From: an uncultured Spirochaetota bacterium
GTDB taxonomy: Bacteria > Spirochaetota > Spirochaetia > SZUA-6 > Fen-1364
DNA: 64,000 nt
Direction: 5' to 3'
NCBI GenBank assembly: GCA_963733835.1
Contig: CAVTER010000015.1
Coordinates: forward strand, 561,988-625,987
The notes below the pieces were generated by a model. It was not told where the DNA came from. It saw only the letters and a list, made by a program, of their open reading frames with translations, and ran no database searches. Both the position numbers and the translations under genes were made by a program. Of this stretch, positions 1,154 to 63,654 are shown piece by piece. How positions within the stretch are numbered: the stretch's first letter is position 1; the number at the start of each line of letters is the position of its first letter.

Positions 1154-1964
1154 TCAGGGATTGTCAAGGCACACGGCGCAGCCGATCCTTTCGGAGAGCT
1201 TTTTCACCCCCGGCAGCTTCCTGTCCAATTGTAGCCCCTTGCGCAGGTATTCCAAGGCCGCCTCACGGCGGCCCGCGGTCGCGTGAACCTCGGCGAGCTT
1301 CTTGTAGAAGAACGCGTTGTCCTTGCGGGAGAAATCCAGCCCTATCAGCTCCTCGAGGCAGGCGATGGCCGGGCCTGGCTCGAGGGCGGCGAGCATCCGG
1401 GTGCACAGCAGCGCGCGCAGCCTGTCCACGACTTCTTCCACGAAGTGTCGGAAGTAGGGGCGCTCCATCTCCCACCTGTACAGCTTCGTGTACAGCGCGT
1501 AGGCCTGGGCGAGGTCCCCGCGCGCCTCCATCTGCTCGGCGAGCAGGAACGCACAGTCCATGTAGTCTTCCCGGGACAGGTACCTTTCCAGTGGGAGTCC
1601 CCGCGCCCCGGTGAAGTCGCCGGTACAGCTCCAGGGCTTCGTCACGGTGATTCGTGAGCAGGTCGTGGAAGATGAGCGTGGCCTGGCTGGAGGGGTCGTT
1701 CGTCCGGGCGCGGAGAAACTCCCGGTAGTCGAAGCGGGGGCGCGTGTCCGCTCTGCCCATCGACCTGTCGTACTCGGCCCGCTTCTCCTGGTCGCCCAGC
1801 ACGCCGTACGCCGCCAGGAGCAGGCGCATCGCCTCCTGCGTGTGCGCGTCCTGGCTGCCCACGAGGTCCGGGTGCAGCTCCTTGGCCCGCCGCCGGAAGG
1901 TCCTGCGAATCTCCTCGGCCGTCGACCCCTGTCGGACTCCGAGAACCTCATAGTAGTTCGTCAT
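1154..1964 (-). CDS. J-domain (DnaJ-like) protein with a TPR-like C-terminus; apparent frameshift near 1620
   Basis: N-terminal J domain (YYEVLGV...HPD motif) in ORF 1263-1964. The coding-like helical C-terminus (ORF 1154-1951) continues in a second frame. Confidence 0.5.
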
Positions 1965-2035
1965 CGTCGGGTAATCCTGTGATGATAGTATCCCGACCCT
2001 TGCATGTCAAGGCGCAGGGGTGGTACGGTGGCCGC

Positions 2036-2812
2036 ATGCTCGGATTCGTGATCAAGAAGACATTCTTCGACATGTGGGACAACATGTTCCGCATCCTCCT
2101 GATGAACCTCGGTTTCCTTGCCGTGCTCGCCATCCTGTTCGTGCTGGCCCCGCTCGCCGGCCGGATCGTCCCCCTGGCAGCCGCCATCGCCGGGGTGGGC
2201 GTCGCCGCCCTCGCCGTCTACGCCGGTGCCGCCAGCCGCATGTGTGCCGACATGTCCGACTACAAGCAGCCCGGCGTCGCCGACTTCTGGACCTATCTCA
2301 AGGACAGCGCGCCCTCCAGCCTGCTCCTCGTCCTGAGCCTGGCTGTCTACGGGGGAGTCGTGTTCGTTGTCGACTTCCCGTTCTTCGCCAGCGTGAAGAG
2401 CTTCCCGGCCTGGCTCGCCTTCGCGCTCCTGTTCTGGGTCACCGTCGCCGTGGTCCTCGCCCTGCAGTACTTCTTCCCCGTCCGGGCCCGCCTCGACCGG
2501 AAGTTCCGCAAGGTCGTGAAGAAGTCGTTCCTCCTGCTTCTCGACAATCCCGGGCATACCCTTGCGCAGTTCCTGGGCGGCCTGCTCATCGTCGTGATAT
2601 CAGTGTTCACCGCCCTGCTGCTTCCCGGGCCGGCCACGCTGTTTCTCTGGTGGAACACCGCCTTCAAGCTGCGGATGTACAAGTACGACTGGCTGGAGAA
2701 GAACCCGGGCGCCGACCGGCGGAAGATCCCCTGGGATGCCCTGCTCGTGGAGGACCGGGAGCGGGTCGGAAAGCGATCGCTGAAGGGGATGATCTTCCCC
2801 TGGAAGGAATAG
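2036..2812 (+). CDS. Integral membrane protein, hypothetical
   Basis: ORF 1979-2812 with multiple hydrophobic helices. The first ATG (MLGFVIKK) is at 2036; the start is uncertain. Confidence 0.5.
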   Translation: MLGFVIKKTFFDMWDNMFRILLMNLGFLAVLAILFVLAPLAGRIVPLAAAIAGVGVAALAVYAGAASRMCADMSDYKQPGVADFWTYLKDSAPSSLLLVLSLAVYGGVVFVVDFPFFASVKSFPAWLAFALLFWVTVAVVLALQYFFPVRARLDRKFRKVVKKSFLLLLDNPGHTLAQFLGGLLIVVISVFTALLLPGPATLFLWWNTAFKLRMYKYDWLEKNPGADRRKIPWDALLVEDRERVGKRSLKGMIFPWKE

Positions 2813-3958: not shown

Positions 3959-5091
3959 ATGATGGTCAAGACAATCGCACTCCCCGTCGCCTGCGTGCTG
4001 GGTCTCTGCCTTGCCGGCTGCGCCGGCACCCGCAGGGGGCTTCCCGCGCGCGTGCAGTCCGCCGTCCTCGCGCCCGGCCGGCTCGCCGGCCCCGTCTCGC
4101 TGCTGCCCGCCGAGGGCGGCCCGTGGGCCGTTTTCTCCGACCGGGAAACCACGTCCCTTGCCCTCGCTCGGGTGCCGGACGGGCCTTTGCCCGCCTCCTT
4201 CCCGCCCGCGCGGCTCCTGGACAAGACCGACGCGGCCCCTCCCCTGTCGCCCATGTTCGGGGAGCATGCCGCGGCAGCCTCGGGCGCATCGGTCGCAGCC
4301 CTGTACCTGGACCGTGAGCGCGAAGACCACGTCGTGCTCAAGCTCGCCGGCCGGCCCGGGGGAATCCCCTGACTGGCGCCTGGATATCCTTGACCCCACG
4401 GGCCGCCCCGTCGCAGTCATCCCCCTGGCCGACGGGCGGTTCGGCTGCGTCTGGGCAACCTCATCCTCCCTGCTGTACAGGCCTCCCACGGGTCCCGACC
4501 AGGTTCTGCGCGCCGACGTCCAGCTTGAGGGGAGGAGCTGCTCGATCGATGCAGGCCGCGGCTTCACGGTGTTCGACCGGGTCTCGGCGAAGCTGCTGTG
4601 GTTCAGCCTGCACGGCGAGACTTTCGAGTCCGGAGAGATCGACGGCCCGGGGCCCATCCACGCCTCCGTTCTCCTCGCCGGGGGGAGCGGGCGGGACCGG
4701 ACCAGCCTCCGGGGGACGGCTCGCCGTCGCCTCGTACGACCCGGCATCGCGGCGGATGTTCCTGGACGAGCAGCAGGAGTCGGGGAGCTGGCAGCGCACG
4801 ACCGTGACCGTGTGCGACGGGACCACCTGGGTGTTCCTCGCGCCATGGGGAACGGGCTACCTGTTCCTCTATGACGAGGTGCGGCCCATGGGAGGAGGCA
4901 GGACGCTCCGCGAGCTCAGCCTGCTGGCCCCCGACGGTCCCCGCTACCGGCGGAAGGTCGTCTCCAGCGGGGAGGAGCCGCTCGGGGGTGCTGCCGCGAT
5001 CGCGGGGGACGGGGTCCTGACCGTCGCGGTGCTCCGCGGGAGCCTCGCCGTCCTGCGCATCGCGCCGCCCCCGCCCGCGGGCCGCAGGTGA
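3959..5091 (+). CDS. Lipoprotein, hypothetical; two apparent frameshifts (~4370 and ~4710)
   Basis: Signal peptide plus lipobox (LCLAGCAG). Coding-like sequence continues through ORFs 3959-4372, 4011-4874 and 4390-5091 in three frames. Confidence 0.45.
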
Positions 5092-5104: not shown

Positions 5105-5587
5105 CTACAGCTTCCTGTAGCGGAAGTCGACGTCCGGGTCCTTGACGACGAGGATCGAGCAGCGGGAGTTCCTGAGTATGTCGCGGTGCTGCCTGCTCAG
5201 CGCATCGCGGAAGCTCTCCTTCTCCTCGAAGCCCCCGAGCAGGATGAGGTCGGCCTCGCAGTCCTGGGCAGCCTGGATGACCTCCGTGGCCACCGCGCCG
5301 CGGCGCAGGACCTTCTCCACGGCCACGCCCTTCTTCTGCGCCAGCTCCTCCACGTAGTTGAGGTAGCGCTGGCCGTTCTCCTCGAGGCTGGCCTCGTACT
5401 CCACGCTCTCGTCCTCGACGAAGATCTTCGAGATCAGAAGCTCGCGCAGCGTGGCGGTGTCGACGACGTAGACGGCCACGAGCCTGCAGCGGTACAGGCG
5501 GGCCATCGTGATCCCGTACTTTGCGGCGCCGATGGAGGCCTCCGACCCGCTCACCGCAACGACGACGGTCTGGAACAACGCTTTCAT
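5105..5587 (-). CDS. uspA: Universal stress protein (UspA family)
   Basis: 160 aa. Usp fold signature (…DLILLGG… and ATP-binding-like G-rich motif). Immediately downstream of V-ATPase D. Confidence 0.65.
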   Translation of the reverse strand: MKALFQTVVVAVSGSEASIGAAKYGITMARLYRCRLVAVYVVDTATLRELLISKIFVEDESVEYEASLEENGQRYLNYVEELAQKKGVAVEKVLRRGAVATEVIQAAQDCEADLILLGGFEEKESFRDALSRQHRDILRNSRCSILVVKDPDVDFRYRKL

Positions 5588-6213
5588 GCTCTTTCCCCCA
5601 GAAGGCGCGCCTTCAGGATCTTCTGCACGAAAAAGACCTCCCGCTCCCTCTCTTCCAGGACCCCCTCGATGAAAGCACGGATGTCCTCGACGTCGGGGAT
5701 CACGATCTTCTCGAGGGCGTTGACCCTGCGCTGGGTCTTGCGCACCTCCTTGGCCAGGCGCCAGACCATGGTGCGGATCTCGGCCATCCGCGCGATGAGC
5801 TTCAGCAGCTCGAAGAACTCGACCATCGTCGCGTCGCAGGTTCCCGATGTCCCCATGAAAGAGTACTTCAGCTCCATGCGGGGCACCTGCATGTCGATTG
5901 TCGGCAGCGGGATGCCCATGAGCCGTCCCTGCTTCTCCCGGACCGTGAACTCGAAGCGGATCCCCTCGCTGATCTCCGCGGCGGACTGCCGGCCCACCTG
6001 CACGATCATCCGCCGCAGCGACCCGTACGCCGTGGCCACCCGCCGGTCGAGGTCCCGTTCCAGCAGCTTCACCTGCTCGACCATGCGCATGAGCTCCATC
6101 ACGAGGATCTCCCGCTTCTGCTCCAGCAGGTCGAATCCCTCGCGCGCGATGGCCAGCTGCTCCTTGACGGCGAAAAGGGCCGACTTTGTCGGGGGAACGT
6201 CAGAGCGGGGCAT
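5584..6213 (-). CDS. atpD: V-type ATP synthase subunit D
   Basis: Coiled-coil D-subunit-like sequence (…LLEQKREILVMELMRM…). The start is set at the internal Met (MPRSDVPPTK) at 6213, 8 nt after the atpB stop. Confidence 0.8.
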   Translation of the reverse strand: MPRSDVPPTKSALFAVKEQLAIAREGFDLLEQKREILVMELMRMVEQVKLLERDLDRRVATAYGSLRRMIVQVGRQSAAEISEGIRFEFTVREKQGRLMGIPLPTIDMQVPRMELKYSFMGTSGTCDATMVEFFELLKLIARMAEIRTMVWRLAKEVRKTQRRVNALEKIVIPDVEDIRAFIEGVLEEREREVFFVQKILKARLLGERA

Positions 6214-6220
6214 GCCGCGC

Positions 6221-7621
6221 CTATGCTCCCCTGGCGCCCGCCGCACCGGCGCGGGGCAGGTACTTCTCTATCATCTCCTCGCGGATGCGGTACAGCTCGG
6301 GGCGGGGCAGCACCGTGAGGATCTTCCACCCCAGGTCGAGGGTCTGTTCGATGGTGCGGTTCTCTCTCTCCCCCTGGGCGAGGAACTCCCTCTCGAACCT
6401 GTCGCCGAACTTGAGGTAGCACTTGTCCAGGTCGGACAGCTCCTCCTCGCCGATCACGGCGGCAAGCGAGCGAATGCTCTTCACGCGCGAATAGCCCGCG
6501 AACAGCTGCGAGGCGAGCTCCTTGTGGTCGTCCCGGGTCATGCCTGGCCCGATCCCGTCCTTCATGAGCCGCGAGAGGGACGGCAGGCCAGCCACGGGCG
6601 GATAGATGCCCTTCTGGAACAGCTCCCGCTCCAAGACGATCTGGCCCTCCGTGATGTACCCCGACAGGTCCGGCACGGGGTGGGAGATGTCGTCGCTGGG
6701 CATCGTGAGGACGGGGATCTGGGTGATGGATCCCTTCGACCCCTCGATCTTGCCCGCCCGCTCGTACAGCGAGGCGAGGTCGGAGTACAGGTACCCGGGG
6801 TAGCCCTTGCGCGACGGGATCTCACCACGGATCGTCGACACCTCGCGCAGCGACTCACAGTAGTTGGTCATGTCCGTCATCACCACCAGGACGTGCATGT
6901 CGCACTGGAAGGCGAGGTACTCGGCCGCGGTGAGCGCGCAGCGCGGGGTGATCAGCCGCTCGATGGACGGGTCGTCGGCCAGCGAGAGGAACATGACGAC
7001 ATTGGCGAGGACGCCGCTCTCCTCGAAGGTGTCGATGAAGAACCGCGCCACGTCGTACTTCACGCCCATGGCCGCGAAGACCATGACGAACGGCTCCTGC
7101 GAGCCCAGGATCCGGGCCTGGCGGATGATCTGGGCAGCGAGCCGGTTGTGCGGAAGGCCGTTGCCCGAGAAGATGGGAAGCTTCTGCCCACGGATCAGCG
7201 TGTTCATCCCGTCGATGCACGACAGCCCCGTCTGGATGAAGTCGCGGGGATAGGTGCGCGCGTCGGGGTTGATGGGGATGCCGTTCACGTCCAGGCGCAG
7301 CGAGCTGAACGCCTCGGGAAACCCGTCGATGGGCTTGCCCAGGCCGTCGAAGATCCTGCCCAGCATGTCGCGCGACACGCGCATCTCCATCGGTGTGCCC
7401 CGGAACTCCACGGCCGAGGCGTCGCTGGACAGCCCCGTGTTCGTGCCGAAGATCTGCACGGCGACCGCCTGCTCGGAGATCTCGATGATCCTGCCGGACC
7501 TCTGCCCGCCGTCCCTGTCGCTCACGACGACGAGCTCTCCGAGGCCCACGTCCTCCGTGCGGGCCAGGACGACGATCGGGCCGTCGACCTTCGTGAGGCC
7601 CCTCCACTCCAGACCCTTCAT
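6221..7621 (-). CDS. atpB: V-type ATP synthase subunit B
   Basis: 466 aa non-catalytic B subunit with conserved blocks (GQKLPIFSG…, …[22 protein letters not shown]). Confidence 0.9.
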
Positions 7622-9390
7622 CGCTTGTAGCTCCTCTCGAGCTCGGCCATTTCCGTGCCCATGAGAGCGTCGATCGCGGCGAGGGACGCGAGGTCGTCAT
7701 TCTTCACTGCCGTCTTCGCGCGCACGATCCGCTCCCTGCAGGAGAGGTCGCGGATCTTCAGAAGCGGGGCCCCCATCTGGATAATGGAGAGGGAGCGCGC
7801 GTAGAAGTCCATTATCAGCTTGAGGATCCGCACCTGCTTGTCCGGCACGCTGAACATGTCCACCTCGTCGTACGCGTTCTGCTGGAGGAACCCGTTCTTT
7901 ATCATCTCCGCCACCAGCAGCACCAGGCGCTGGTTGTCCGGCAGGGCGTCCGGCCCGATCAGCTTCACGATCTGCGAGAGCCTCTGCTCTCTCTTCAGGA
8001 GTTCGATCGCGCTCTCGCGCGCTGCTGCCCAGTCAGGGTTCACCTTCTGCCACCAGCCCCGGATCTCCTCGGCGTACTCGCTGTAGGAGTCGATCCACGA
8101 GATGGCCGGGTAGTGGCGGGCGTTCGCAAGCTCCCTGTCCAGGGCCCAGAAGCAGCGGATGAAGCGCTTCGTGTGCTGCGTCACCGGCTCGGAGAAGTCG
8201 CCCCCGGGAGGAGAGACGGCGCCGATCACGGAGATCGAGCCGCGCCTGCCGCCCAGCGTCGTCACCCGGCCCGCCCGTTCGTAGAACTCCGCCAGCCGCG
8301 TGGGCAGGTAGGCCGGGAAGCCCTCGTCGGCAGGCATCTCCTCCAGCCGCCCCGACAGTTCGCGCAGCGCCTCCGCCCAGCGGGAGGTGGAGTCGGCCAT
8401 GATCGCCACGTCGTAGCCCATGTCCCGGTAGTACTCGGCCAGGGTGATGCCCGTGTAGATGGACACCTCGCGCGCGGCCACCGGCATGTTGGAGGTGTTG
8501 GCGATGAGGATCGTGCGCTCCATGAGCGACTTCCCCGTGCGGGGGTCCTGGATGCGGGGGAACTCGGTGAGCACGTCGGTCATCTCGTTGCCCCGCTCGC
8601 CGCAGCCGATGTAGACGATGATGTCCGCGTTGCACCACTTTGCCAGGGCCTGCTGCATCATCGTCTTTCCGGTCCCGAACCCGCCGGGGATGGCCGCCGT
8701 GCCGCCCCGCGACAGCGGGAAGAAGACATCGATCACCCGCTGGCCGGTGACCAGCGGCTCGTCCATGCTCAGCTTCTGGAGGTAGGGCCGCGGCTTTCGA
8801 ACGGGCCAGTGGTGCGACAGGGTCATGTCGGTGCCCCGGGCCGCGGCGCCCGCCCCGGCGAACCGCACGATCACCTCGGAGACCGTGTAGTCGCCCTCGG
8901 GGGCGACCCACTCGATCGTGGAGGAGGCCATCATGGGGAACGGCATCACCTTGTGCATGATGGTTGCCGATTCCCTCACCTCGCCGAGAATCGCGCCGGG
9001 TGCCGCCGTGTCACCCCGCTTGCACGAGGGGACAAAGTGCCACTTCTTTTCGAGGGGAATGGGCGGGATCTTGATCCCGGGGGCGATGAAGCCGCCGGAC
9101 ATCCTCTTGATCTCCTCCAGGGGCCTCTGGATGCCGTCGTAGATCTCGCCCAGCAGCCCCGGACCCAGGTGGACGGAGAGGGGCCGCTCGAGGGACACCG
9201 CGGTCTCGCCCACCCGCATGCCCGTGTTGTCTTCGTAAATCTGGATCGTCGCCAAATCGCCTTCGAGGCGGATGATCTCGCCGATCAACCGCTTCTCGCC
9301 GATCTCGACAACGTCGTACAGCCCGCTGCCCCCGAGGCCGCTCGCCTTGATGATGGGGCCGTTGATGCGGGTCACCTTGCCTTCGATCAT
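7618..9390 (-). CDS. atpA: V-type ATP synthase catalytic subunit A
   Basis: Walker A GGFGTGKT and the A-subunit insert. The start at [14 protein letters not shown] (9390) makes an ATGA overlap with atpB. Confidence 0.9.
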
Positions 9391-9397
9391 GAGGCTC

Positions 9398-10027
9398 TCA
9401 CTGTCCCTTCCCGCCGCCCAGGAGCGCGGCGACGAGCTCCTCGCGCCGTTCCTCGAGCAGCCGCGCTGCAAGCTCGTCGAGAGTCGCGCGGCAGCGGATA
9501 CGGCCGTCGACTGTCGCCACGACAACGCCGCGCGAGGCTGCCCCCCCGAGGGGTCCAGGGCCCGCGGCATCCTCGTGCACGTCCTCGACAACAGCCCGGG
9601 GAAGTGCCGCCTCGACAATCCCGCGCGCGGCGCCGGCATCGATGCCCCGCCAGCCCACCGACACGCGCGCTTCCCCGAAGGCCTGTGCCGCCCTGGACAG
9701 CAGCGCGCCGAGTACCCGGGCCAGCTCCGCGGGGCTCAGCGCCGCGAACAGCTCGTCGAGCGCTCCGCGCAGTGCTTCCTCGGTCGCCGACAGGCGCGTG
9801 CGCATGAAGTCCAGCGGCAGCGAGGATTCCAGCTCCTGCCGCAGGCCGCGGACCTTCTCCTCCGCCTCTGCCGCGATGCGTCCGCCATCGTCGCGTCGCT
9901 TCGCCTCCCACTGGGCTGCGATCGACCGGGCGTCCTTCTCCGCGGCCTCGAGGATGCGGCTGGCCTTCCTGCGCGCGTCCTCCAGGATCTGCTGTTCCAG
10001 CGTTTCGCTGGTCTTCAGGATCTCCAC
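9398..10027 (-). CDS. atpE: V-type ATP synthase subunit E
   Basis: 209 aa charged coiled-coil N-terminus typical of subunit E. Confidence 0.7.
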
Positions 10028-10039
10028 CTGCCCCCTCCC

Positions 10040-10345
10040 CTAGACGTGGACGCCCACCGCTTCGCGGATCGCGTCGACGAGGCCGCGCCTGTTCTCGAGG
10101 TGGCCCTCGATGCCGGGGATCTCGACGACCAGGGGGTAGGAGCCGCTGAGCTGCCACTCCATCACCAGGTCCGCGATCATCGCGGAAACCTGCTCCGTGA
10201 TGATCAGCACCCGGGCCGCCCCGGACGAGGTCGCCCGTCGGAAGGCCTCCTCGGCCTCGGGCTTCGAATACACGGCAGTGCCCGGCACGCCGACGAAACG
10301 GAAGCCGATGACCAGCTCCTCGTCGCCGATGACGGTGAACTCCAC
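10040..10345 (-). CDS. atpF: V-type ATP synthase subunit F
   Basis: 101 aa (MEFTVIGDEELVIGFRFVG…), typical F subunit. Confidence 0.75.
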   Translation of the reverse strand: MEFTVIGDEELVIGFRFVGVPGTAVYSKPEAEEAFRRATSSGAARVLIITEQVSAMIADLVMEWQLSGSYPLVVEIPGIEGHLENRRGLVDAIREAVGVHV

Positions 10346-10361
10346 GCGGGACTCCGCGGCC

Positions 10362-10667
10362 CTATGCCGCCGAGAGGATCATCAGCGCCACGATGAACCC
10401 CCAGAGGCAGATGCCCTCGGCCATGCCGACGAAGGGCAGCGCCTTCCCCGACAGCTCGGGGTTCTCGCTCATCGCGGCCATGGCCGCCGCGCCGATCTGG
10501 CCCACGGCGATGCCGCCGCCCAGCGTGGCAAGACCCACGGCGATCGCGGCGGCGATGTACTTGATCGTCGGCGCGGTGGCGGCCGCGGGTGCCGCGGCCT
10601 GGGCAAACAGGGCGGGAGCGGCGCATGCCACCAGCAGCGCCGCGGACAGGAACAGTCTCTTCTTCAC
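10362..10667 (-). CDS. atpK: V-type ATP synthase subunit K (proteolipid)
   Basis: About 101 aa, two hydrophobic helices with a Gly/Ala-rich motif (IAVGLATLGGGIAVGQIGAAA). GTG start with a GGGAGG RBS. Confidence 0.8.
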   Translation of the reverse strand: MKKRLFLSAALLVACAAPALFAQAAAPAAATAPTIKYIAAAIAVGLATLGGGIAVGQIGAAAMAAMSENPELSGKALPFVGMAEGICLWGFIVALMILSAA

Positions 10668-12697
10668 CTCGTACCTCCCGAATGCAGCTTGAACGGCTTG
10701 AACTCTTCCCCCGACTCCACGAAGAACTTGGAGAAGAACTCGTAGTACTCCAGCCTGACCACCTGGATGGTCACGATGAGTCCCTCGAGCAGGATGATGA
10801 TCGCGTTGCCCACGAGGATGATGGCGATGCGGCCGGCGATCCCGCCGGGGGCGCTGCCCACCATGCCGGCGAGCAGGAACACGATGCCGCTGAGAACCGT
10901 GTGCGCGAGGGCGAAGGCGGCCACGCGCAGGAAGCTCACCGAGTTGGACACGTAGTAGATCGCCGATTCCATGAGCTCGACGATCCCTTCCATCACGAAC
11001 CCGAAGACCCCGTCCTTCAGGAGCGGCCTCTTGCCGCCGGCCAGCCGGGCGATCGGCTCGCGGAAGAACAGGACCAGCAGGGGGAACGCAACGAGGGCCA
11101 CGTCCACCCCGTGCAGCCGGCCTCCGAAGACCAGCCGCACGGCGATGGACAGCACGTACCAGAAGAAGAACGCCCCCGCGAGGCCCGTCTTCGACAGCAG
11201 CGCGCGTTCCCAGTTGCGCATGCGCACGTTGTTTATCATGTTGATCACGAGGCCCACCGAGTTGATGACGGCGCCGATCGCCAGCGTGACCCCGAAGAAC
11301 AGGGTGATCTTCTGGAAACCGCCGAGCTCGATGATCCTGTCGACGGGGCGCCCGGTGAGGACCCCTGTCACCCAGCGGACCACGGGCACGAGAAGCTCCT
11401 CGTTGGCGAACACGGAGCCGTAGAGGAACCCCGAGACCATGCAGGCAATCCCCACCACCACGAACACCGTCCCGAAGTTCTTGCGCCGGTAGGTCTCGAA
11501 GGATTTCACCCGCCCGCTTCCGATGAGCAGGCCCACGACAAGGCCCACGAATCCCTGGCCCACGTCCCCGAACATGATGGCAAACAGGACCACGAACATG
11601 ACGGCGACGAAGGGGGTCGGGTCGATCGTCCCGTACAACGGCACGCTGTACGAGAAGACCATCCGCTCGAAGGAGCGCACGATGCGCCCGTGCGCGACAG
11701 ACACCGGCACCCGGGTCTTCCCCGAACGCACGTCGGGCAGCTCTTCCGGCTCGTAGGAGCGGATCGCGACACGGCCCTGGGTGATCTGCTCGAGGCCCGC
11801 CACGACTTCCTTGAACCTTCGGCGGGGGACCCAGCCGCTCACGCGCTGCACGCTTCCCGTCGCAGCCAGGCCCTGTTTGACCGCGTCGATGGACACGTCC
11901 AGGTCCAGCTCGTACAGCAGGGCGCGCACCTCCGCCTCGCGCAGGTCGCGGAAGCGCCTCTTCTCTGCGTCGATGCCGGCGAGCAGGTCGTCCACCTCGG
12001 CGAGCCTCCCCTGCACGGACGGGAGCACCTCCGCGGGAATCCCCTTCAGGTCGGCGGGAAAGGCGGCCTCCTGGAAAGCGAACTTCTTCAGCTCCGTGTC
12101 CAGCGCCCAGCGGCCCTTCTTCGGGGCGATGGCCATGAGGAAGCCGGGCCTGCCCAGCGGGACGATGAGCGCGCGCTTCTCCAGCAGGAGGCGCAGCTCC
12201 TCCATCCGTCCCGGTGCGATGGTGCCCAGCCGGAAGCTGAGGTAGGTCAGGTGCTCCAGCTCCGTGAAAGCGACCTTGAGATGCGCGAAGGCGGACAGCT
12301 CGTCGACCGTCTGCTTGAGGCTCAGCCGCTGCTGCAGCAGCTCGCCCTCCGTCCCGACCAGGTCCTTCAGCTCCTCGATCAGCGAGTTGGCCCTGTCGCG
12401 GAGGGCGTCGCGCGAGGGGGCGGGGGCCGCGGGAACGGCCGGGGCTCCCGCCCCGGTCGAGGCAGGCGGGGCCGCCTCCGTGCGCGGCCCCGGGCCGATG
12501 CCGAGGAAGCGGGCCAGGGCGTCGACCTTGCCCTTCAGGTCCGCGATCTCCCGCTCCTCGGCGGTGAGCTCGCGCTGCTCTTTCGTGTCCGCGATGAGCT
12601 GCACGCACCCGGCAAAGCCGAGGTAGCGCAGCACGTCGTCGACGTCCCGCTTCAGCACGAGGAGCTCCAGCTTCTTCATCCGCTCTGTGGAAAACAT
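10664..12697 (-). CDS. atpI: V-type ATP synthase subunit I (116 kDa a-subunit)
   Basis: 677 aa with a hydrophilic N-half and a polytopic C-half. GTGA overlap with atpK. Confidence 0.85.
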   Translation of the reverse strand: MFSTERMKKLELLVLKRDVDDVLRYLGFAGCVQLIADTKEQRELTAEEREIADLKGKVDALARFLGIGPGPRTEAAPPASTGAGAPAVPAAPAPSRDALRDRANSLIEELKDLVGTEGELLQQRLSLKQTVDELSAFAHLKVAFTELEHLTYLSFRLGTIAPGRMEELRLLLEKRALIVPLGRPGFLMAIAPKKGRWALDTELKKFAFQEAAFPADLKGIPAEVLPSVQGRLAEVDDLLAGIDAEKRRFRDLREAEVRALLYELDLDVSIDAVKQGLAATGSVQRVSGWVPRRRFKEVVAGLEQITQGRVAIRSYEPEELPDVRSGKTRVPVSVAHGRIVRSFERMVFSYSVPLYGTIDPTPFVAVMFVVLFAIMFGDVGQGFVGLVVGLLIGSGRVKSFETYRRKNFGTVFVVVGIACMVSGFLYGSVFANEELLVPVVRWVTGVLTGRPVDRIIELGGFQKITLFFGVTLAIGAVINSVGLVINMINNVRMRNWERALLSKTGLAGAFFFWYVLSIAVRLVFGGRLHGVDVALVAFPLLVLFFREPIARLAGGKRPLLKDGVFGFVMEGIVELMESAIYYVSNSVSFLRVAAFALAHTVLSGIVFLLAGMVGSAPGGIAGRIAIILVGNAIIILLEGLIVTIQVVRLEYYEFFSKFFVESGEEFKPFKLHSGGTR

Positions 12698-12698
12698 C

Positions 12699-15680: not shown

Positions 15681-15687
15681 CTGCGGC

Positions 15688-52919: not shown

Positions 52920-53827
52920 CTCTGCACACCTCCCTCTTCACGGGCCCAGGCCTTGCGGACGAGCCGGGCCGGGTCGAGAACGATCACCGCTGAGCCATCC
53001 TCCGCGACCCCTCCCCCGGCCGCCCAGGGGCGGCACTCCCCGCCAGTGCGGACGAGCGTGACGGTGCGCACCCCGCCGTGCTCATCCCCGGCGAGGCACG
53101 CGCGCCTGCGGCCCGCGCGCACGATGACACCCGCCAGCTCGGGCTGGCCAGCCCCTTGCCGCGGCGCGGAGGGCGCGAAAAGGCTCTCCAGGAGAAGCAC
53201 GGGAACTGTCTTCCCGTCGCGCGAGACCGCGGTGCTCCGCCTCACGTTCATGCACTCGACGACCGCGGCGCCGGGAATCCCGTACCACCGTCCCCCCGCC
53301 CGCAGGAGCAGGCAGCGCGACGCCCCCGGGAGAACCGGAACCTTCACCTCGGCGGCCGCCCCGCGGCCGACTTTTCCGCCAACCCTGGCCAGGCGTCGAC
53401 CCGCCTCCTCGACGGCGGCGGCAGCCGACCCGGTCCGCTGCGGCCTGCCGCCTGAGAGCGTGAAGGTCACCCAGTCGTCCTGCTGTCGTGCGTCAAGCGA
53501 CAATTTCGCAGAGCCACGCCGCGCGTTGCGGCCCGGCAGGCGGGCTTCCGCCAGGGCGACCAGCGCAGCGCGGACCTCGCTCACGAGGGAGGAGTCGATC
53601 TCCACGTCCAGCCCCGACACCTCCACCGTCGCGCGGGGCGCGAGCGCACGGGACACCGTGCGGAAGACGGGGCCGACCGGAACGAGCCGCGCGCGCGCGG
53701 CCGCGTCGCGGACCTCGCGGGCCGCACCCGCGCAGGCCGAGGCGGCGTCGGTCACCTGCCGCCCGGCGGAGGCGAGGCCGTCCTGCAGCCGGGCCACGAG
53801 CCCCTCGGCTGCGGCGAACCTTTCCAT
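52916..53827 (-). CDS. CheA-like protein C-terminal portion: dimerisation-like region, degenerate kinase core, CheW-like domain
   Basis: …LVPVGPVFRTVSR…VEVSGLDVEIDSSLV… parallels the CheA P3/P4 junction, but the N-box/G1/G2 ATP-binding motifs are missing. The C-terminal 140 aa are CheW-like. Confidence 0.5.
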   Translation of the reverse strand: MERFAAAEGLVARLQDGLASAGRQVTDAASACAGAAREVRDAAARARLVPVGPVFRTVSRALAPRATVEVSGLDVEIDSSLVSEVRAALVALAEARLPGRNARRGSAKLSLDARQQDDWVTFTLSGGRPQRTGSAAAAVEEAGRRLARVGGKVGRGAAAEVKVPVLPGASRCLLLRAGGRWYGIPGAAVVECMNVRRSTAVSRDGKTVPVLLLESLFAPSAPRQGAGQPELAGVIVRAGRRRACLAGDEHGGVRTVTLVRTGGECRPWAAGGGVAEDGSAVIVLDPARLVRKAWAREEGGVQR

Positions 53828-53864
53828 GACCGAGCGCGCCGCCTCGGTTGCGGCAGCCCCCGAA

Positions 53865-54470
53865 CTACACGGAGTCGAGAAGCCCCGGCATCTCCCGTGC
53901 AGCTGTCGCCATCACCTCGTGAAAGCGCAGGGCAGCCTCGCGCGCCTCCCCGAGGAGGGCGCCGGGCGAACGGGCGCCGGCCGTGAGCGCGGCGGCGGAT
54001 CGCTCCGCCTCCAGGGCTGCCCGGGTCACTGCCTCAAGCCGCGACGGCTGCACCCGCAGCAGCCTGCGTCCCGGCGGAAGCAGGGCGGCGGGCGCTGCCC
54101 GTCCCCGCAGCTCGCCGAGGAGCGCGTTCGCGGCCGTGAGGTCGGCCTCCCCACCCTGCGCGGCGCGCGCCGCAGCGCGTGCCGCCTCGGCGAGCATCAC
54201 CGCGGGCCCTTCGCCCGCCCCCCCGTCCCGCATCGCAGCCGCCGCCTCGCGGATGAGTCCCGCAAGCTCGCCCAGGCCGACCAGGCCTGCCGCCTCGGCC
54301 TCGGCGCGGAGCGAGTGGGCAGTGCGGAACACCTCGTCCAGCGCGTCGACGGGAACGGAGGACCCCCGAAGGCCGTCCGCGTGCGCCGCGAGCGCGTCGG
54401 CGAGCCGGCGGGCCTCCGAGAGGCTCCCCTCGAGGAGGCTCGTGTTCTCGGTATCGAGGTAGTCGCTCAT
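53865..54470 (-). CDS. Hpt (histidine phosphotransfer, CheA P1-like) domain protein
   Basis: 201 aa four-helix Hpt with FRTAHSLRAEAEAAG (phospho-His context). Lies 38 nt upstream of the CheA-like C-portion and may be one gene split by an indel. Confidence 0.5.
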   Translation of the reverse strand: MSDYLDTENTSLLEGSLSEARRLADALAAHADGLRGSSVPVDALDEVFRTAHSLRAEAEAAGLVGLGELAGLIREAAAAMRDGGAGEGPAVMLAEAARAAARAAQGGEADLTAANALLGELRGRAAPAALLPPGRRLLRVQPSRLEAVTRAALEAERSAAALTAGARSPGALLGEAREAALRFHEVMATAAREMPGLLDSV

Positions 54471-54590: not shown

Positions 54591-55310
54591 GTGACTGTGA
54601 GCATCCTCGTGGTCGAGAGTTCCCCGTCGACGCGGGAATCTCTCTGCTACACCCTTCTCTCGTTCGGCGTGAAGGGCATCCCGGCCGCCTCGCGGAGGGC
54701 GGCGTTGGACATGGTCCACGCCACCGCCGACCTCGAGGCAGCAATCATCGACATCGACAACCGCGATGTCGAGGGCTCCGCCCTGGTCGAGGAGCTGCGC
54801 GGCAGCGAGAAGACCCGCGGGATCGCCGTCATCGTCCACACTGTGCAGTCGGGCAAGGACTTCGTCATGACAATGATCGAGTCCGGGGTGGCCGGTTACC
54901 TGCTGAAGCCCTACGATCCCGCCCGGGCACGCGACAAGCTCGGCACAATCCTTTCCAAGCTCGCGACTCATGATGGCCAGAGGAAGCATTTCCGGGTCCG
55001 ACCCGACCCCGACGACCTCGCCCGAGCGCACTTCCGTCTCACCCCCGGGGCACCCCTGTACTCCGGCAGGATCGTCGACGTCAGCCTGGGCGGCATGGCA
55101 ATGGAGCTGCTCACGCCCCCGGCCGAGGGCCTGCTGCAGCCGGGCACCCGCATCCCGCGCCTGGAGTTCGCGCTGGGAGGCAGGGAGCTCGCCCCGCAGG
55201 CCGCTGTGGTGCTGCTCAAGGCGCGGGTTCTTGCCCTGCGCTTCGAGCCCATGGCACCGGCAGACACGAAGTCCCTCGAGAGGTATATTTTCAAGAAGAT
55301 ATCGTCCTGA
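54591..55310 (+). CDS. Response regulator receiver (REC) plus PilZ domain protein
   Basis: N-terminal CheY-like receiver (ILVVESSPSTRE…D…LLKP). C-terminal PilZ motifs (RKHFRV…, DVSLGGMAMEL). Confidence 0.65.
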   Translation: MTVSILVVESSPSTRESLCYTLLSFGVKGIPAASRRAALDMVHATADLEAAIIDIDNRDVEGSALVEELRGSEKTRGIAVIVHTVQSGKDFVMTMIESGVAGYLLKPYDPARARDKLGTILSKLATHDGQRKHFRVRPDPDDLARAHFRLTPGAPLYSGRIVDVSLGGMAMELLTPPAEGLLQPGTRIPRLEFALGGRELAPQAAVVLLKARVLALRFEPMAPADTKSLERYIFKKISS

Positions 55311-58222: not shown

Positions 58223-59276
58223 GGGGACTCCCGCCGCGTTCGAATCGCGAGATGAACGCGCGCACCCCAGAGTATATGCCCTCGGCCAGGTCGTTCAAGT
58301 ACGCCGGCTGCGCCAGGCGCGCGGCCTCCTCGGGGGTGGAGATGAAACCCACTTCGATCAGAACGGCCGGCATCTTGGTGTTGCGTACCACGTACCAGGA
58401 CTCCTCCTTCAGCCCCCGCGACGGGGACACCCCCCCCACCGACCTTTCCAGCCCGGCAAGGATGTCCCGGGCGAGGACGATGCTCTCGACGGTGATCTCC
58501 TCCTCCAGCATGCTGTTCAGGATCGGGATCATCTCCTCGTCCACGCCGTCCTTCCCGCCCTCCAGGAGGTTGCGCTTGTACTCGGGCGGGAGGTACCACA
58601 CCTCGAAGCCCGTCGGCTTCGAGGCCCGGTTCAGCGTCGCGTTGGCGTGCACCGAGATGTACAGCACCGTGTCGGCGGTCTTCGCGAGCAGGGCGTTTGC
58701 CATGTCCGCGCGGTCCTCCAGGGAGATATAGGTGTCGTCGCCGCGGGTGAAAAGGATCTGCTTGTCGGGGTATTCCTCCGCGAGCCGCCTGCCCAGTGTC
58801 TTCGACACCGCCAGCACCACGTCCTTCTCGCGCACATCGACTGGAGGCTTCCTCGAGGCGTCCCTGCCCACGGCACCGGGGTCCTTCCCCCCGTGCCCCG
58901 GGTCGATGAGCACCGATCCGATGCGCAGGCGTTCCATGGCCCGCGCCAGGCGCTGTCTGCCCACCGCGTCGCTCACGGCCGCCACCGCCTCGGCGGTCAG
59001 GAACACCGCCCCGTCCCGCAGCGTCGGCGCGTCGATGTTCACCTTGACCGCATAGTCCACGACGACGAAGGGCACGCCGACCTGGAGGGCGATCCTGTCA
59101 TCACCGGCCTCGATCACCCCGAGCCCGCGAAGCGGGTCCCACTCGAGGCTCCCGCCCAGCTCAGCAACGAGGGCGAGGAGTTCCTGCTCCTGCGCCTCGA
59201 GAAGGGGGGGAACGGCCGTCCCCAGCAGGAACAGCAGCAGCAGACATGGCAGCGCGACAGGACGTCTCAGCCGCAT
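58212..59276 (-). CDS. N-acetylmuramoyl-L-alanine amidase (Amidase_3, AmiC-like)
   Basis: Signal peptide, AMIN-like N-terminal region, catalytic domain (VLIDPGHGGKDPGAVG…ISVHANA…). ATG verified at 59276. Confidence 0.8.
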   Translation of the reverse strand: MRLRRPVALPCLLLLFLLGTAVPPLLEAQEQELLALVAELGGSLEWDPLRGLGVIEAGDDRIALQVGVPFVVVDYAVKVNIDAPTLRDGAVFLTAEAVAAVSDAVGRQRLARAMERLRIGSVLIDPGHGGKDPGAVGRDASRKPPVDVREKDVVLAVSKTLGRRLAEEYPDKQILFTRGDDTYISLEDRADMANALLAKTADTVLYISVHANATLNRASKPTGFEVWYLPPEYKRNLLEGGKDGVDEEMIPILNSMLEEEITVESIVLARDILAGLERSVGGVSPSRGLKEESWYVVRNTKMPAVLIEVGFISTPEEAARLAQPAYLNDLAEGIYSGVRAFISRFERGGSPRVQ

Positions 59277-60868
59277 ACCCGCCCGAGGTACGCGGCCAGT
59301 TGCCCCTTCGCCGCCGCGGCGCGCACGCTGTCGGCGAGGTACAGTGCCCCTTGCCGTGAGCCGCGCAGCAGCGCCCGCCAGAAGAGGCGGCCGAGGGCGA
59401 AACCCGGCCCGACGGGGCCCGCGCGAAGCCGCGCTCCACACTCCGCGAGTGACAGGCGCACCGCCTCGGCGAAACCCGCCCCGTGCCAGTCCAGCTCGGC
59501 GATATCCTCCCAGCCCTGCAGGGAAATCACGGCGATTTCGTCCGCCGGGTGGAAGGCAGAGGGGTCGCCCGTCCATGCGGGCAGCCCGGCAAGACGGGCG
59601 GACGAAGATCCCGCGGCCGCGGGAAAGGCGTCCGTGCCGCCGGCGAACAGGAAGCCGTCGGTGCGGTCGTCCAGGGGCTCCAGCTGGACCGAGATGCACG
59701 AAATCGCGGCACGGGCGGCCGCGATTGCCCCCTGCCTCTCCTCGTGCACGCTGATGACGTTGCCGCACTTCTGCACGTTGTTGCGCGGGAAGACTACCGC
59801 CGACCCCGGCCGCACGCGCAGGAAGACCTCCGCGACACCGTCTCCCGCCCGTGCCCTGTCGACGCCCCTCACCTCCCGCACCGTGCCCGGCAGCGAGATG
59901 AAGGCGCGTTCGGCCGACACCCGCTTCACGCGCGGGGACAGGTCGCCCGGAGGAAGCCCCACGGCGATGTTCAGCGCGGCTCCTGTCACGTCCACGCCCG
60001 AGGACAGGGGGAAGGTCCACCCCGACATGTAGCCCCCCGAGAGCCTGGCCGCGATCTCGCCGATCATTGCTCCCCGCGGGGTGATCTTGATGTCGCCCTT
60101 GGCGGCGCCCGTGTGGATCCCCAGGGCACGGATACCGGCGCGGAAGACTTCGCAGGCCTCCCCGACCGTGCGCGACCCGAGGTCGGTGGGCATCGTGTGC
60201 CCCAGCTCGACGAAGCAGGGAGGGAAGAAGATGTGGCGGTCGGCAACTCCGCAGACGGTGGCCTCCCCCCTGGAGACGACGGCATCGAGGCTGAGCTCTT
60301 CCCCCTCCATGAACTCTTCCACGATGACGCGCGAGGAACGGGACAGCGGCAGCGCCTCGCGGCATGCCGCCTCCAGGTCGGAGATCTCATCGACCCTGCG
60401 CACCCCCCGCGCGCCCATGTTGTCAACCGGCTTCACGACGAGCGGGAAGGAGAACCCCCGCACGCAGACCGACGGCTCGCCGTCTCCCGACCAGCAGGCG
60501 AAGCGCGGGCTGGGCACCCCTGCGGCGGCAAAAGCTTCGCGCATCAGTGCCTTGTCGGTCGCCTTGAGGGCGGTTTCGTAGGGGATGCCCGGCAGGCCCA
60601 GCTTCTCCGCCACCCACGCGACGGATGCCGAAAAGTCCGTTCCCGCGGTGAACACGCCGTCCAGCCCGCCCTGGCGCCCGCAGTCGCGTGCCAGCGACAC
60701 CAGGCCGTCCAGGTCCTTGAGGTCGACGTGGGCAAACCGGTCGCAGAGGCCCTTCCCTTCAGCTTCCGGGTTTCCGTCGGCGACAACGACCCGCCACCCC
60801 CTCCCCTTCGCGATGCGGATGGCAGGGATCTGCATGATGCCCGCGCCCAGGATCAACACGGTTCTCAT
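59267..60868 (-). CDS. ATP-grasp domain enzyme (carboxylate-amine ligase-like)
   Basis: 533 aa. Rossmann-like N-terminus (LILGAGIMQIPAI), ATP-grasp core (PLVVKPVDNMGARGV…EEFMEGEELSLDAV). Confidence 0.6.
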   Translation of the reverse strand: MRTVLILGAGIMQIPAIRIAKGRGWRVVVADGNPEAEGKGLCDRFAHVDLKDLDGLVSLARDCGRQGGLDGVFTAGTDFSASVAWVAEKLGLPGIPYETALKATDKALMREAFAAAGVPSPRFACWSGDGEPSVCVRGFSFPLVVKPVDNMGARGVRRVDEISDLEAACREALPLSRSSRVIVEEFMEGEELSLDAVVSRGEATVCGVADRHIFFPPCFVELGHTMPTDLGSRTVGEACEVFRAGIRALGIHTGAAKGDIKITPRGAMIGEIAARLSGGYMSGWTFPLSSGVDVTGAALNIAVGLPPGDLSPRVKRVSAERAFISLPGTVREVRGVDRARAGDGVAEVFLRVRPGSAVVFPRNNVQKCGNVISVHEERQGAIAAARAAISCISVQLEPLDDRTDGFLFAGGTDAFPAAAGSSSARLAGLPAWTGDPSAFHPADEIAVISLQGWEDIAELDWHGAGFAEAVRLSLAECGARLRAGPVGPGFALGRLFWRALLRGSRQGALYLADSVRAAAAKGQLAAYLGRVCG

Positions 60869-61860
60869 CCGCGCGCCTTTCCGCCCTTTCTCCTGACAGG
60901 GGAGGAAGCACCCCCGCCCTGCCGCCTCGGGGCAGCCCCGGATCCCCAGCGCGTCGCGGTAAGCCCGGCCGCAGCCGCACCGACCCCGAAAGCCAACAGG
61001 CCGAAGCCGACTGCCGTCGAACCGGCGCGGCGTCGGGCGTCCTGCATCGCAAGCTCGAGCGACGAGGTCTCGACGGCCACCCGCACCATGCCATTGCAGA
61101 AATACGAGACCGAGGGGTCGAAGAAGACTATTGGAGAGTAGAAGACATACGAGCCTGCCCGCTGCGCAGGGTCAAAGGCGGGGTAGCTGCGCACCGGCCC
61201 GAGAGCCTCCACCTCGGCGGAGAGCGCCTGGTCGATCTCCCGCCCCAGCGCGAAGAGGGCCTGCCGGGCTTCTGACAGCTGCGGAGGGATCCGCCCCCGT
61301 GGGCCTGCCCGTGCGGCATTCAGCGCCGCCCGCCCCTCCGCGTACCTGTTCACCCTGTCTCCGAGGGCTGCCCGCAGCCGCTCTTCCACCTCCCGCTGGA
61401 AATCTCCGATGACGCCCTTGCGGCCCAGCTCGTCCCCGGCAGACTCCTCCGCGGGGCGGAAGGCGCCGCTCTCGCGCACGCTCTGCCAGGCCTCCTCGTC
61501 GCTCGCCAGCACGTAGTCGCGCACCGAGCAGCGCTCCGAGTTGTAGATCTCGTCCTGGTGGGGACCGGTGATCGTCACCGACGTCGCCTCGGGCATGGAG
61601 CGCCTTGCCGCCGTCAGGTCACGGATCGTCGCGTAGCCCTCGGCGCGGAGCGCGACCTGGCCGGCTGCAACGGAGGCGAGAGACCGGGTCAGCACCTCCG
61701 CGCGACCCCGAAAGGCCTCGGCAGCGGCGCGCTCGCCTCTCCTGGCGGCAAGGATGCCCGGGGGGACTGCCGCGACACCGGCCACGACGAGCCCGATCGC
61801 GCTCACGAGCAGGATCCGTGTCGCACGGGGATGCCTCTGCCGCCGCGCAGCTTCTCTCAT
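60865..61860 (-). CDS. Membrane-anchored hypothetical protein
   Basis: About 331 aa, N-terminal and C-terminal TM helices, no recognised domain. Confidence 0.35.
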   Translation of the reverse strand: MREAARRQRHPRATRILLVSAIGLVVAGVAAVPPGILAARRGERAAAEAFRGRAEVLTRSLASVAAGQVALRAEGYATIRDLTAARRSMPEATSVTITGPHQDEIYNSERCSVRDYVLASDEEAWQSVRESGAFRPAEESAGDELGRKGVIGDFQREVEERLRAALGDRVNRYAEGRAALNAARAGPRGRIPPQLSEARQALFALGREIDQALSAEVEALGPVRSYPAFDPAQRAGSYVFYSPIVFFDPSVSYFCNGMVRVAVETSSLELAMQDARRRAGSTAVGFGLLAFGVGAAAAGLTATRWGSGAAPRRQGGGASSPVRRKGGKARG

Positions 61861-63654
61861 CGACCTACCCTCCTGTTGCCGCGCACCCGCACTGCATACG
61901 CCTCGAAGGTGTCGCCGAGCCGCAGTGCCCGACTGACGGCAAGAACCATCGCTCTGCCCGCCCGTCCCCGTGCGGCGAGCCGACCGAGCAGGCCGGGGAA
62001 CCGCTCGGGGTGATGCCCCGTGATCCGCACGCGCACGAGCCGGAAGCCGCGCCGCCCCAGAAGCGGCCCCAGCGCACCGGGCGAGAAGATCGTCGCGTGG
62101 TCGAAGGGGCTTCGCTCGAGGAACCGGCGCCGATCGGCGAGAGCAGTGATTCCCCTCCCGTTGGGCGTCGAGAAAGCGAGCACGCCCCCGGGAGGCAGCA
62201 GCCCCGCGGCCTTGTCCAGGGCAGCCCCCGCGTCCTGGAAGTGCTCGATGACGTACCACATCGTGACCGCCGCGATCCTCCGGGGCAGCGCCTGCCGCGG
62301 GAGGCTCTCGAAAGCCCCGCGCACCGCAGGCATCCCCAGCCTCTTGCGAACGTGCCTCACCGCGTGGGCCGAGACATCGACCCCGATACCCTCAAGCCCC
62401 GCTTCCCGCAGCGCCGCGAGGAAAGGGCCGTAGGCGCATCCCACGTCGACCACCGCGCCGCGGGGACCAGCCTGCAGGAGCCGCTGCACCTCGCGCACCC
62501 TCGGTGCGCACAGCAGGCGGATGGCGTCGAAATCCTCGAGGTAGGTCCGCCCGTACTGTGACCGGTATTCCGAGAAGAAGTACTCCCTGCCGTACCTGCC
62601 CCCCCGGTGAACGAAGTCCTGCAGGAAGAACACCCGGCAGGCAGAGCAGCGGCGGTACGTCCTGTCCGAGAACCGCGCGAGCACCCTGCCTCCCGGGGTC
62701 CCGCAGACCGGGCAGGTCTCCCGGGCACCCACAACCAGGGCCGACAGCAGCCCCGCGAGGCTCGTGTTTCGGCGGCCCGCGATCTCCGTGTTGAACCTCT
62801 CGACACAGGCGTGCAGCACATCCGGGTCGCGCAGCAGCTGGCGCAGCTTCCCCGCGCGTGGCTTGCGCCGGCCACAGTCAGGGATGCCGGCTGTCCGTCC
62901 CAGCAGCCGGTGATAGCTGCTGGGATGCGCGAGTATGACCGGCGTGCCTGAAGCGAGTGCCTCGAAGGCCGTGACCCCGAAGTGGGTGAACACCAGGTCG
63001 TGCTTCCACAGCTCGCCGCGCAGCTCGCCGCCCGCTTGACGGACACGGACGCCCTTCGGCCATTCGCGCGCGGCAAAGAGCGCCCCCTGCACGACCGTCA
63101 CGCAGGAAGGGTCCCACAGCCCCGACGTGACCAGCGCATCGAGCAGGGCGCCTGTCAGGTTCTCCCGGTCCTCCCCGCCGAAGGTGACAAGGATGCGGCG
63201 CAGCTCTCCCGCGTGGCGGCGTCGGCGGGCAGGCAGCTCGAGCAGCGCGGGGGAGGCGGCGTTCGCGGGCGACCGACCGGGGGGGCCCGGCAGGGTGTCG
63301 ATGAGGAAAGACGCCGATTCACGAGCGCCTCCGCCCTCGTCCACGAACACGCAGGGGCCCAGCCGGGCAAGATGATCTGCCTCCTGCGGCGTGGTGGACC
63401 TCTTGTCCACCACGACCATGTCCCAGCGGCGGCTTCCCTCCCCCGCCCCGACGAGGCCGGGGCCTGCTCGTTCCCTTCCACCGGCTGATCTCGCCGGCCA
63501 GGTACTCACGGGCCGGTTCGTCCATGGCCGTGGTCAGGAACCAGGAGTGGCCGTCCAGGCCCCGCGCGAGACGCAGGCACCTCTTCAGGTGGCCCACGCC
63601 ATCGCCCGCCCCGGCCGCTGGCACGAGCAGGTACCTCCGCGCACCCGTGCTCAT
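61857..63654 (-). CDS. PseG/SpsG-like UDP-sugar hydrolase/glycosyltransferase fused to SAM-dependent methyltransferase with Zn-ribbon; frameshift ~63440
   Basis: N-terminus MSTGARRYLLVPAAGAGDGVGHLKRCLRLARGL (PseG motif) in ORF 63319-63654, continuing in ORF 61857-63509. CxxC…CxxC ribbon plus class-I methyltransferase motifs (VVDVGCAYGPF). Confidence 0.6.

Follow-up and report, generated by a model that had tools for sequence, protein, structure and literature searches.

Introduction

Mycobacterium leprae and recent host-restricted symbionts are the familiar cases of genome decay with mass pseudogenisation. Among technical errors, the under-calling of homopolymers yields deletions. Spurious frameshift pseudogenes also arise in conserved genes, in numbers that depend on platform, assembler and coverage rather than on biology (Cooley and Wright, 2024; PMC11017572). 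In long-read metagenomes, gene prediction suffers from small indels in community members of low depth, and protein-guided edits of one or two bases restore the reading frames (proovframe; bioRxiv 10.1101/2021.08.23.457338). Homopolymer indels are the classical errors of nanopore R9-type, 454 and Ion Torrent data (background in PMC9262707). Here we analyse a stretch of 64,000 nucleotides from an uncultured Spirochaetota bacterium (GenBank assembly GCA_963733835.1, contig CAVTER010000015.1, positions 561,988 to 625,987 of the forward strand; hereafter the window), in which 13 genes, among them uvrA, mutS2 and phoH, are broken by small frameshifts.

The window has a GC content of 69% and is densely coding, mainly on the minus strand. 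Its genes include that for FlaA, a flagellar sheath protein of spirochaetes, and an operon for a V-type ATPase, and the proteins nearest to its UvrA are those of uncultured Spirochaetia. A preliminary description of the same DNA had reported frame changes in eleven named genes and ascribed them to indels at G/C homopolymers. Judged from the sequence and its relatives, the frameshifts are very probably errors of the deposited consensus and not features of the organism.

Results

Thirteen genes of the window are interrupted by 27 frameshifts

The frame in use along both strands was traced as a Viterbi path on the periodicity of GC content at third codon positions (GC3). Nucleotide alignment to relatives was dropped as a means of placing indels, since at 66–82% identity it contained too many gaps; a protein-to-DNA dynamic-programming (DP) aligner that allows frame slips of one and two bases was therefore written for this analysis. 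Its queries were orthologues from syntenic loci of related spirochaetes, all of them relatives of other species and not of the window species. L001 (ERZ25039471) and L002 (ERZ25039512 contig_37525, 249 kb) are ENA assemblies with Flye-style contig names, L003 and L083 belong to one MEGAHIT-style k141 contig of GCA_964353885.1, L085, L086 and L087 come from Logan and NCBI, and a further relative is found on a JGI 3300075153 contig. The 0–17 kb and 36–42 kb regions were checked by family models, gene lengths and coding signal only. As a control of specificity, the aligner returned zero shifts in the HD-7TM, rsgA, murI, NDH-2, ATP-grasp, amidase, FlaA, UbiA and ABC transporter genes, among others.

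Orthologue alignment, family models and GC3 together locate 27 frameshifts in 13 genes, comprising 19 one-base insertions, six one-base deletions and two two-base deletions. A single small edit per site (mostly one base, and two bases at the two −2 sites) brings all 13 genes back to open reading frames (ORFs) whose length is as expected and whose starts and stops are native, and after correction no in-frame stop is left in any of them. The sole stop seen, a TAG in an Hpt/CheW-like gene, is the product of the inserted T itself. GC3 periodicity stays at full strength in the shifted frame. Differences of frame between neighbouring genes are normal in a high-GC genome; the shifts go beyond such chance differences, because one family model or orthologue aligns continuously across each junction.

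All eleven genes named in the preliminary description do need frame changes, and, as it had claimed, coding signal and termini resume in the shifted frame, giving full-length restored ORFs. Its tally stands for mutS2 (two), the polyprenyl synthase (three) and a lipoprotein (two), and for phoH, rluD, the ECF ATPase, the PseG-methyltransferase, the TPR protein and the J-domain protein, where one shift each was found. It was low for uvrA, with nine shifts where at least five had been counted, and for the gene called lptD, with three instead of two, and two further genes, apbE and the Hpt/CheW-like gene, were absent from its list.

Corrected genes match family models and intact orthologues

In what follows, + denotes bases inserted into and − bases missing from the deposited sequence, an inserted base is bracketed, and lengths are those of the corrected proteins. 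Positions are good to a few bases, with wider intervals for the J-domain, lipoprotein, ECF ATPase and N-terminal LptD-like sites.

The most heavily affected gene is uvrA (26066–28910, minus strand; 941 amino acids). DP alignment against three independent references gave the same nine shifts, at ~28777 (−1), 28273 (+1), 28230 (+1), 27528 (−1), 27486 (+1), 26778 (+1), 26754 (−2), 26286 (+1) and 26180 (+1). Corrected UvrA matches NCBIfam NF001503 in a single stretch (1488 bits; residues 2–939 on profile positions 4–942 of 943) and aligns over residues 1–939, at 85% identity, with a single ORF of L003. Compared with 119 homologues, it retains all 114 invariant columns and matches 202 of the 204 columns conserved in at least 98% of them. 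This is the normal range of intact homologues and shows purifying selection at undiminished strength.

The adjacent mutS2 (29035–31379, minus strand; 781 amino acids) carries shifts at ~30014 (−2) and ~29897 (+1). Its corrected product matches TIGR01069 in one stretch (742 bits; residues 3–779 on profile positions 2–790 of 790), and the gene is a single ORF in L001, L003 and L004. A +1 shift at ~34728, adjoining CCCGGGGG, interrupts an rluD-type pseudouridine synthase gene (34634–35570, minus strand; 311 amino acids), whose corrected product matches TIGR00005 (residues 18–305 on profile positions 5–297 of 298). Corrected UvrA, MutS2 and RluD all pass the curated whole-protein cut-offs. For phoH (21649–22609, minus strand; 319 amino acids), the preliminary description was right to place the shift within Walker A: a +1 at ~22199 (GCG[C]GGC, no homopolymer) makes the deposited sequence read GVGPA/RHRQ where GTGKT is expected. 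In corrected PhoH the NCBIfam PhoH match runs unbroken over residues 109–313, and identity to a single ORF of L003 is 87% over residues 1–319.

Between phoH and uvrA lies a gene for an LptD-like protein of outer-membrane type (22686–26068, minus strand; 1128 amino acids), with shifts at ~22747 (+1, CTC[G]CCGG), ~24529 (−1) and ~25998 (−1); the corrected protein aligns over residues 1–1128 with one ORF of L003. The name lptD itself finds no backing, as a Pfam scan of the 1128 corrected residues, which does not cover distant homology by structure, revealed no LptD/OstA domain. The protein has a signal peptide, and all that Pfam detects in it is a sub-threshold SAP domain close to the N-terminus. 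Its GTG start overlaps the uvrA stop (GTGA), and the gene is syntenic, downstream of uvrA, and conserved in related spirochaetes. A scan of the contigs of GTDB species representatives with this protein as query returned no relatives.

The polyprenyl diphosphate synthase gene (43239–44206, minus strand; 322 amino acids) is shifted at ~44133 (−1), ~44018 (−1) and ~43306 (+1, CTC[G]CCGG). Its corrected product matches TIGR02748 (residues 28–322 on profile positions 25–319 of 319), and its orthologues in L086, L087 and the JGI contig are single ORFs of 321 amino acids. In the TPR protein gene (16993–18991, minus strand; 665 amino acids), a G4 is read as G5 at ~18362 (+1); the L003 orthologue is one ORF, and L002 is unbroken at the window's site. 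The fused ECF-transporter ATPase (38044–39502, minus strand; ~485 amino acids) has a +1 at ~38327 (CAGCCCGGCG). A TIGR04521 match over residues 282–473 of the corrected protein crosses the junction unbroken, and a close relative on the JGI contig has one ORF of 490 amino acids.

Near the two ends of the window, homologues themselves span the junctions. The J-domain/TPR-like protein (1154–1964, minus strand; 269 amino acids) has one +1 at ~1604–1619 (listed as 1611), which DP alignment against P0361 and P0362 places at 1604–1616 and at which GC3 passes from frame 0 to +1; more than 100 homologues of 260–270 amino acids align over residues 1–262 in one stretch over the junction. The PseG-like/methyltransferase fusion (61857–63654, minus strand; 598 amino acids) has a +1 at ~63460, and more than 100 homologues of ~592 amino acids cover 98% of the corrected protein, spanning the junction. 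For the lipoprotein gene (3959–5091, plus strand; 376 amino acids), neither a Pfam family nor an orthologue was found, and its two +1 shifts, at ~4340–4362 (a G5 run; listed as 4352) and ~4672–4722 (listed as 4697), rest on coding signal only, with GC3 of 0.87, 0.85 and 0.92 in frames 0, +1 and +2 of three successive segments.

The two additional genes were resolved by orthologues. In apbE (46262–47315, plus strand), a +1 at ~47288 (CTC[G]ACA), near the C-terminus, causes loss of the native stop, and the ORF runs on to 47443. DP alignments against L085, L086 and L087 agree on the site, and the restored protein ends in ...RFRLTDPRFTLRE before the stop; the two C-terminal variants are told apart by the orthologues and not by Pfam. 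The Hpt/CheW-like gene (52916–54470, minus strand) is split into ORFs of 201 and 303 amino acids by a +1 at ~53868 (GTG[T]AGT), which creates the TAG noted above; its orthologues are single ORFs of 483 (L083) and 516 (L087) amino acids. After correction, the Hpt-like and CheW-like ORFs are joined into a protein of ~515 amino acids that lacks a kinase domain, next to a response-regulator-PilZ gene (54597–55310, plus strand), and this protein may be a degenerate CheA-like scaffold.

Several candidates were rejected. A frameshift called by DP in the Hpre_diP_synt_I gene was none against the closer reference L087, and second shifts called against P0364, P0373 and P0122 were taken as defects or divergence of those references. 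A region at 47.95–48.25 kb, suspected of being messy, is coding sequence of lower GC3 in which the ABC ATPase and permease genes are intact, and what looked like a poly-A/T run at 44.2 kb proved to be no more than AAGAAGAAAAAGAAA.

Most sites are not homopolymers

The preliminary description had proposed frameshift-aware alignment and a count of indels by homopolymer context as a check. Carried out with the DP aligner, this check bears out the frameshifts and, for the most part, not their link to G/C homopolymers: at 17 of the 27 sites, the localisation interval holds no run of at least four bases. Runs of four or more lie near the remaining ten (6.65 expected by chance; P = 0.10), and runs of five or more near six (2.0 expected; P = 0.015), so the enrichment is real but minor. 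The sites compatible with homopolymer error are those in the TPR gene, in rluD (G4 read as G5), at 26180 in uvrA (a G run) and at the first lipoprotein shift (G5).

The longest runs are untouched. None of the 16 runs of seven or eight bases in the window coincides with a frameshift, and all are in frame or intergenic (for example C8 at 25545–25552, C8 at 58430–58437, G7 at 24920–24926, C7 at 29068–29074 and A8 at 52326–52333). Such in-frame runs include C8 and G7 tracts of the LptD-like gene and a C7 tract of mutS2. Intact long runs are unusual for a sequence with so many indels, and suggest a platform that resolves homopolymers well.

Several inserted bases instead match neither neighbour, as judged against L003 codons (GC[T]GCG, GT[C]GTCC, CTC[G]TCG, CGC[G]ACG and GCG[C]GGC) and against L085–L087 (GTG[T]AGT and CTC[G]ACA). 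The bulk of the shifts thus looks like unresolved random read error. A recurring context was seen nonetheless. The 10-mer GGCTCGCCGG is common to two insertions (the GGCTC[G]CCGG copies at 22742–22751 and 43301–43310, both on the minus strand), at which orthologues have CTC CCG; the window's third copy, at 4080–4089 on the plus strand, is the only one without a frameshift. Correction would turn CTCGCCGG into CTCCCGG at both 22747 and 43306, and GTGTAGT into GTGAGT at 53868. The presumed true 9-mer, GGCTCCCGG, occurs once in the window against ~3.8 expected, and CTC[G] accounts for four of the 19 insertions. This shared context may reflect a context-specific miscall, in numbers too small to settle the matter.

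The frameshifts are clustered

A fairly even scatter, as the preliminary description had implied, does not fit the positions. Between 22199 and 30014, 15 of the 27 frameshifts fall within 7.8 kb, in phoH, the LptD-like gene, uvrA and mutS2, which are adjacent and unrelated in function. This maximum of 15 per 8 kb was reached in none of 20,000 uniform simulations, and the dispersion index in 4-kb bins is 2.66 (P about 0.001). The cluster is not a bias of detection, because reference-based checks of 42–64 kb gave only six shifts. It follows position, not gene function.

At the other extreme are shift-free stretches of 13.7 kb (V-ATPase, tpiA and pgk) and ~9.6 kb. By NCBIfam matches and frame path, the genes for USP, the V-ATPase operon, secG, tpiA and pgk (5105–16869, minus strand) form a control stretch without a frameshift. 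V-ATPase A, B and I, Pgk and TpiA, which had been described as intact, are so by near-full-length, single-stretch matches to NCBIfam whole-protein models; V-ATPase D, YbeY and RsgA are likewise intact, and MurI matches 219 of 251 model positions.

Relatives are broken elsewhere or not at all

For 12 of the 13 genes, the lipoprotein having no orthologue, orthologues are single ORFs in relatives assembled with short-read assemblers. The L003/L083 contig alone carries UvrA, PhoH, MutS2, the LptD-like protein, the TPR protein, RluD, the PseG-methyltransferase and the Hpt/CheW-like protein as single ORFs, and ApbE is uninterrupted in L085, L086 and L087.

The two relatives with Flye-style contig names differ from these and from each other. 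L002 (66.5% GC) has 46 frameshifts in ~15 kb of coding sequence (~3 per kb), and its gene calls are fragments. Its shifts include 11 in the HD-7TM gene, nine in mutS2, seven in rsgA, three in murI and only two in uvrA; the HD-7TM gene, rsgA and murI are intact in the window. Shifts in L002 are patchy too, at other places. L001 has one frameshift. The load across the three related contigs is therefore ~0.1 (L001), 0.4 (window) and 3 (L002) per kb, insertion-biased in every set, and no window site is shared with a shift of L001 or L002.

The broken products have entered public records. P0001 (497 amino acids) is identical in every letter to the out-of-frame uvrA ORF of the window, 15 residues of which are in the wrong frame, and P0121 (520 amino acids) is an N-terminally truncated PseG-methyltransferase product; NCBI and ENA place the two on a single contig of 1,010,924 bp. 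Two more UvrA entries, P0062 and P0006, stem from other large contigs and likewise finish in wrong-frame sequence, so that many broken products of this group of assemblies stand in the public protein collection.

Other features of the window

Four further observations concern genes outside the affected set. A gene for a membrane protein of 331 amino acids (60865–61860, minus strand) lies between the PseG-methyltransferase and ATP-grasp genes; it is absent there in L083, where those two genes abut. The gene at 44213–46144 (minus strand) joins an NDH-2-type oxidoreductase (Pyr_redox_2, residues 5–324) through an Ala-rich linker to a hydrophobic C-terminal half of ~300 amino acids, a fusion conserved at 82–92% identity in several metagenome contigs. 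On the JGI 3300075153 contig, whose NDH-2 is 92% identical, rtcB, archease and an ORF of 50 amino acids stand between the HMA and flavodiiron genes; they are missing from the window (~42.05–42.6 kb). The sole tRNA gene of the window, tRNA-Val (GAC) at 52359–52433 (minus strand), is ~25 nucleotides from the A8 run at 52326–52333.

Discussion

Four features argue strongly, in agreement with the preliminary description, for consensus errors of the long-read type rather than pseudogenisation: no nonsense mutations, invariant residues kept, orthologues that are single ORFs, and sites shared with no relative. Different conserved genes are hit at different places in three related assemblies and at unequal rates, which points to a technical process. 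The window most likely comes from a long-read metagenome assembly, given its 1-Mb contig and the Flye-style names of related ENA contigs. An origin in the Danish nanopore MAG project, which used Flye and a single round of Medaka, is no more than a guess from the 'contig_N' names and the MFD MAGs among the matches, and carries no weight here. If few reads support the consensus locally, single-base insertions would survive, together with fewer one- and two-base deletions; each surviving indel would shift the frame, gene callers would emit truncated or split proteins, and these fragments would enter public protein databases. Most errors would then be ordinary random indels, with homopolymer miscounts in the minority, and in the 8-kb patch at 22–30 kb effective read support would have dropped locally, on the scale of a few reads. 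That the cluster was caused by low local depth and that all 27 sites are errors is, like the platform, what we infer from these patterns, and one or two of the sites could be real.

Several points weigh against this explanation. The artefacts are deduced from sequence, not observed in reads or depth. Nor did a second, independent assembly of the species turn up: the best UvrA match other than the window's own is 78% identical (for the queried fragment), and the closest NDH-2 92%. Eleven of the 27 shifts lie in two DNA-repair genes, uvrA and mutS2, as mutator decay would also predict. Neither the bias towards insertions (19 of 27) nor the independence from homopolymers resembles textbook nanopore consensus error. 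Finally, pairs of compensated shifts may be hidden in the 0–17 kb and 36–42 kb regions.

An artefact might also have arisen by a route other than low depth, through polishing or consensus building across mixed strains or related spirochaetes, or through context-specific base-calling errors, such as those at modified bases. Assemblies whose ENA accession numbers adjoin, and which may belong to one project, contain several related Spirochaetia, and the repeated 10-mer, the depleted 9-mer and the CTC[G] insertions would suit a context effect. The relatives, however, are only ~70–76% identical at the DNA level, which in our judgement probably excludes cross-mapping of long reads. Most sites have no common motif, and the numbers are small, as 15% of shuffled sequences reach three copies of the 10-mer. 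We therefore regard such a route as unlikely, and context-specific error as a weaker alternative to a local loss of read support.

The concentration of shifts in two repair genes also suits real and recent pseudogenisation, in which uvrA, mutS2 and about 11 other genes were lost by small indels in a repair-deficient, decaying lineage. This is very improbable. UvrA would have acquired nine indels, yet it keeps every invariant residue and has no stop, and 27 frameshifts stand against zero nonsense mutations; if one quarter of disabling mutations were nonsense, we calculate the probability of finding none in 27 as ~4e-4. The signs expected of pseudogenes, namely an admixture of nonsense mutations, substitutions at conserved sites (judged on UvrA) and a degraded coding signal, were not found. 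Coding density is normal, and reading through the window's ORFs, with no specific search, revealed no insertion sequence (IS) elements. Housekeeping genes are among those hit (polyprenyl synthase, rluD and phoH), the hot-spot tracks position and not function, and L002, with the same contig naming, is hit harder elsewhere, including in rsgA and murI. There is equally little room for the view that a substantial share of the indels is real, in which case this high-GC spirochaete would either have lost uvrA and mutS2 recently and be gathering insertion-biased frameshifts as a mutator lineage, or tolerate the frameshifts by widespread +1 recoding.

Programmed recoding, that is expression through ribosomal +1/−1 frameshifting or transcriptional slippage, would account for the directional bias (19 of 27 sites need a +1 correction), but it is extremely improbable, as the varied, GC-rich contexts share no slippery motif or poly-A/T tract, no site is conserved (L003, L083 and L085–L087 read straight through), and nine sites in one gene, some 40 nucleotides apart, match no known recoding pattern.

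Read as consensus errors, the frameshifts have little biological meaning, and the organism's uvrA, mutS2, phoH and the rest are almost certainly intact. The practical consequences are larger. About one fifth of the window's genes are mis-called, and inferences about metabolic or repair pathways, pseudogene counts and completeness estimates for this metagenome-assembled genome would be wrong. Homopolymer-aware polishing alone would leave most sites uncorrected. The distribution of the errors is patchy, so an operon free of them gives no assurance about the 8 kb beside it. The value of these results is thus as a quality flag on the record and on the protein entries derived from it.

How the window compares with known systems depends on the system. 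It resembles genome decay in its many interrupted genes, DNA repair included. It differs in that it has no nonsense mutations, loss of invariant residues or drop in coding density, and in that the orthologues are intact in relatives; nor was an IS expansion seen, again with no search aimed at one. Compared with classical homopolymer error, only a minority of the window's sites fit, and insertions (19) outnumber deletions (8). The closer parallels are technical. Our DP correction follows the same principle as proovframe, which repairs long-read data of the kind from which the window presumably derives. The study of spurious pseudogenes (PMC11017572) stresses internal stops as the marker of poor assembly, whereas the window has frameshifts only and no stop left after correction; the likeness to that study lies in the unequal load of shifts across three related contigs.

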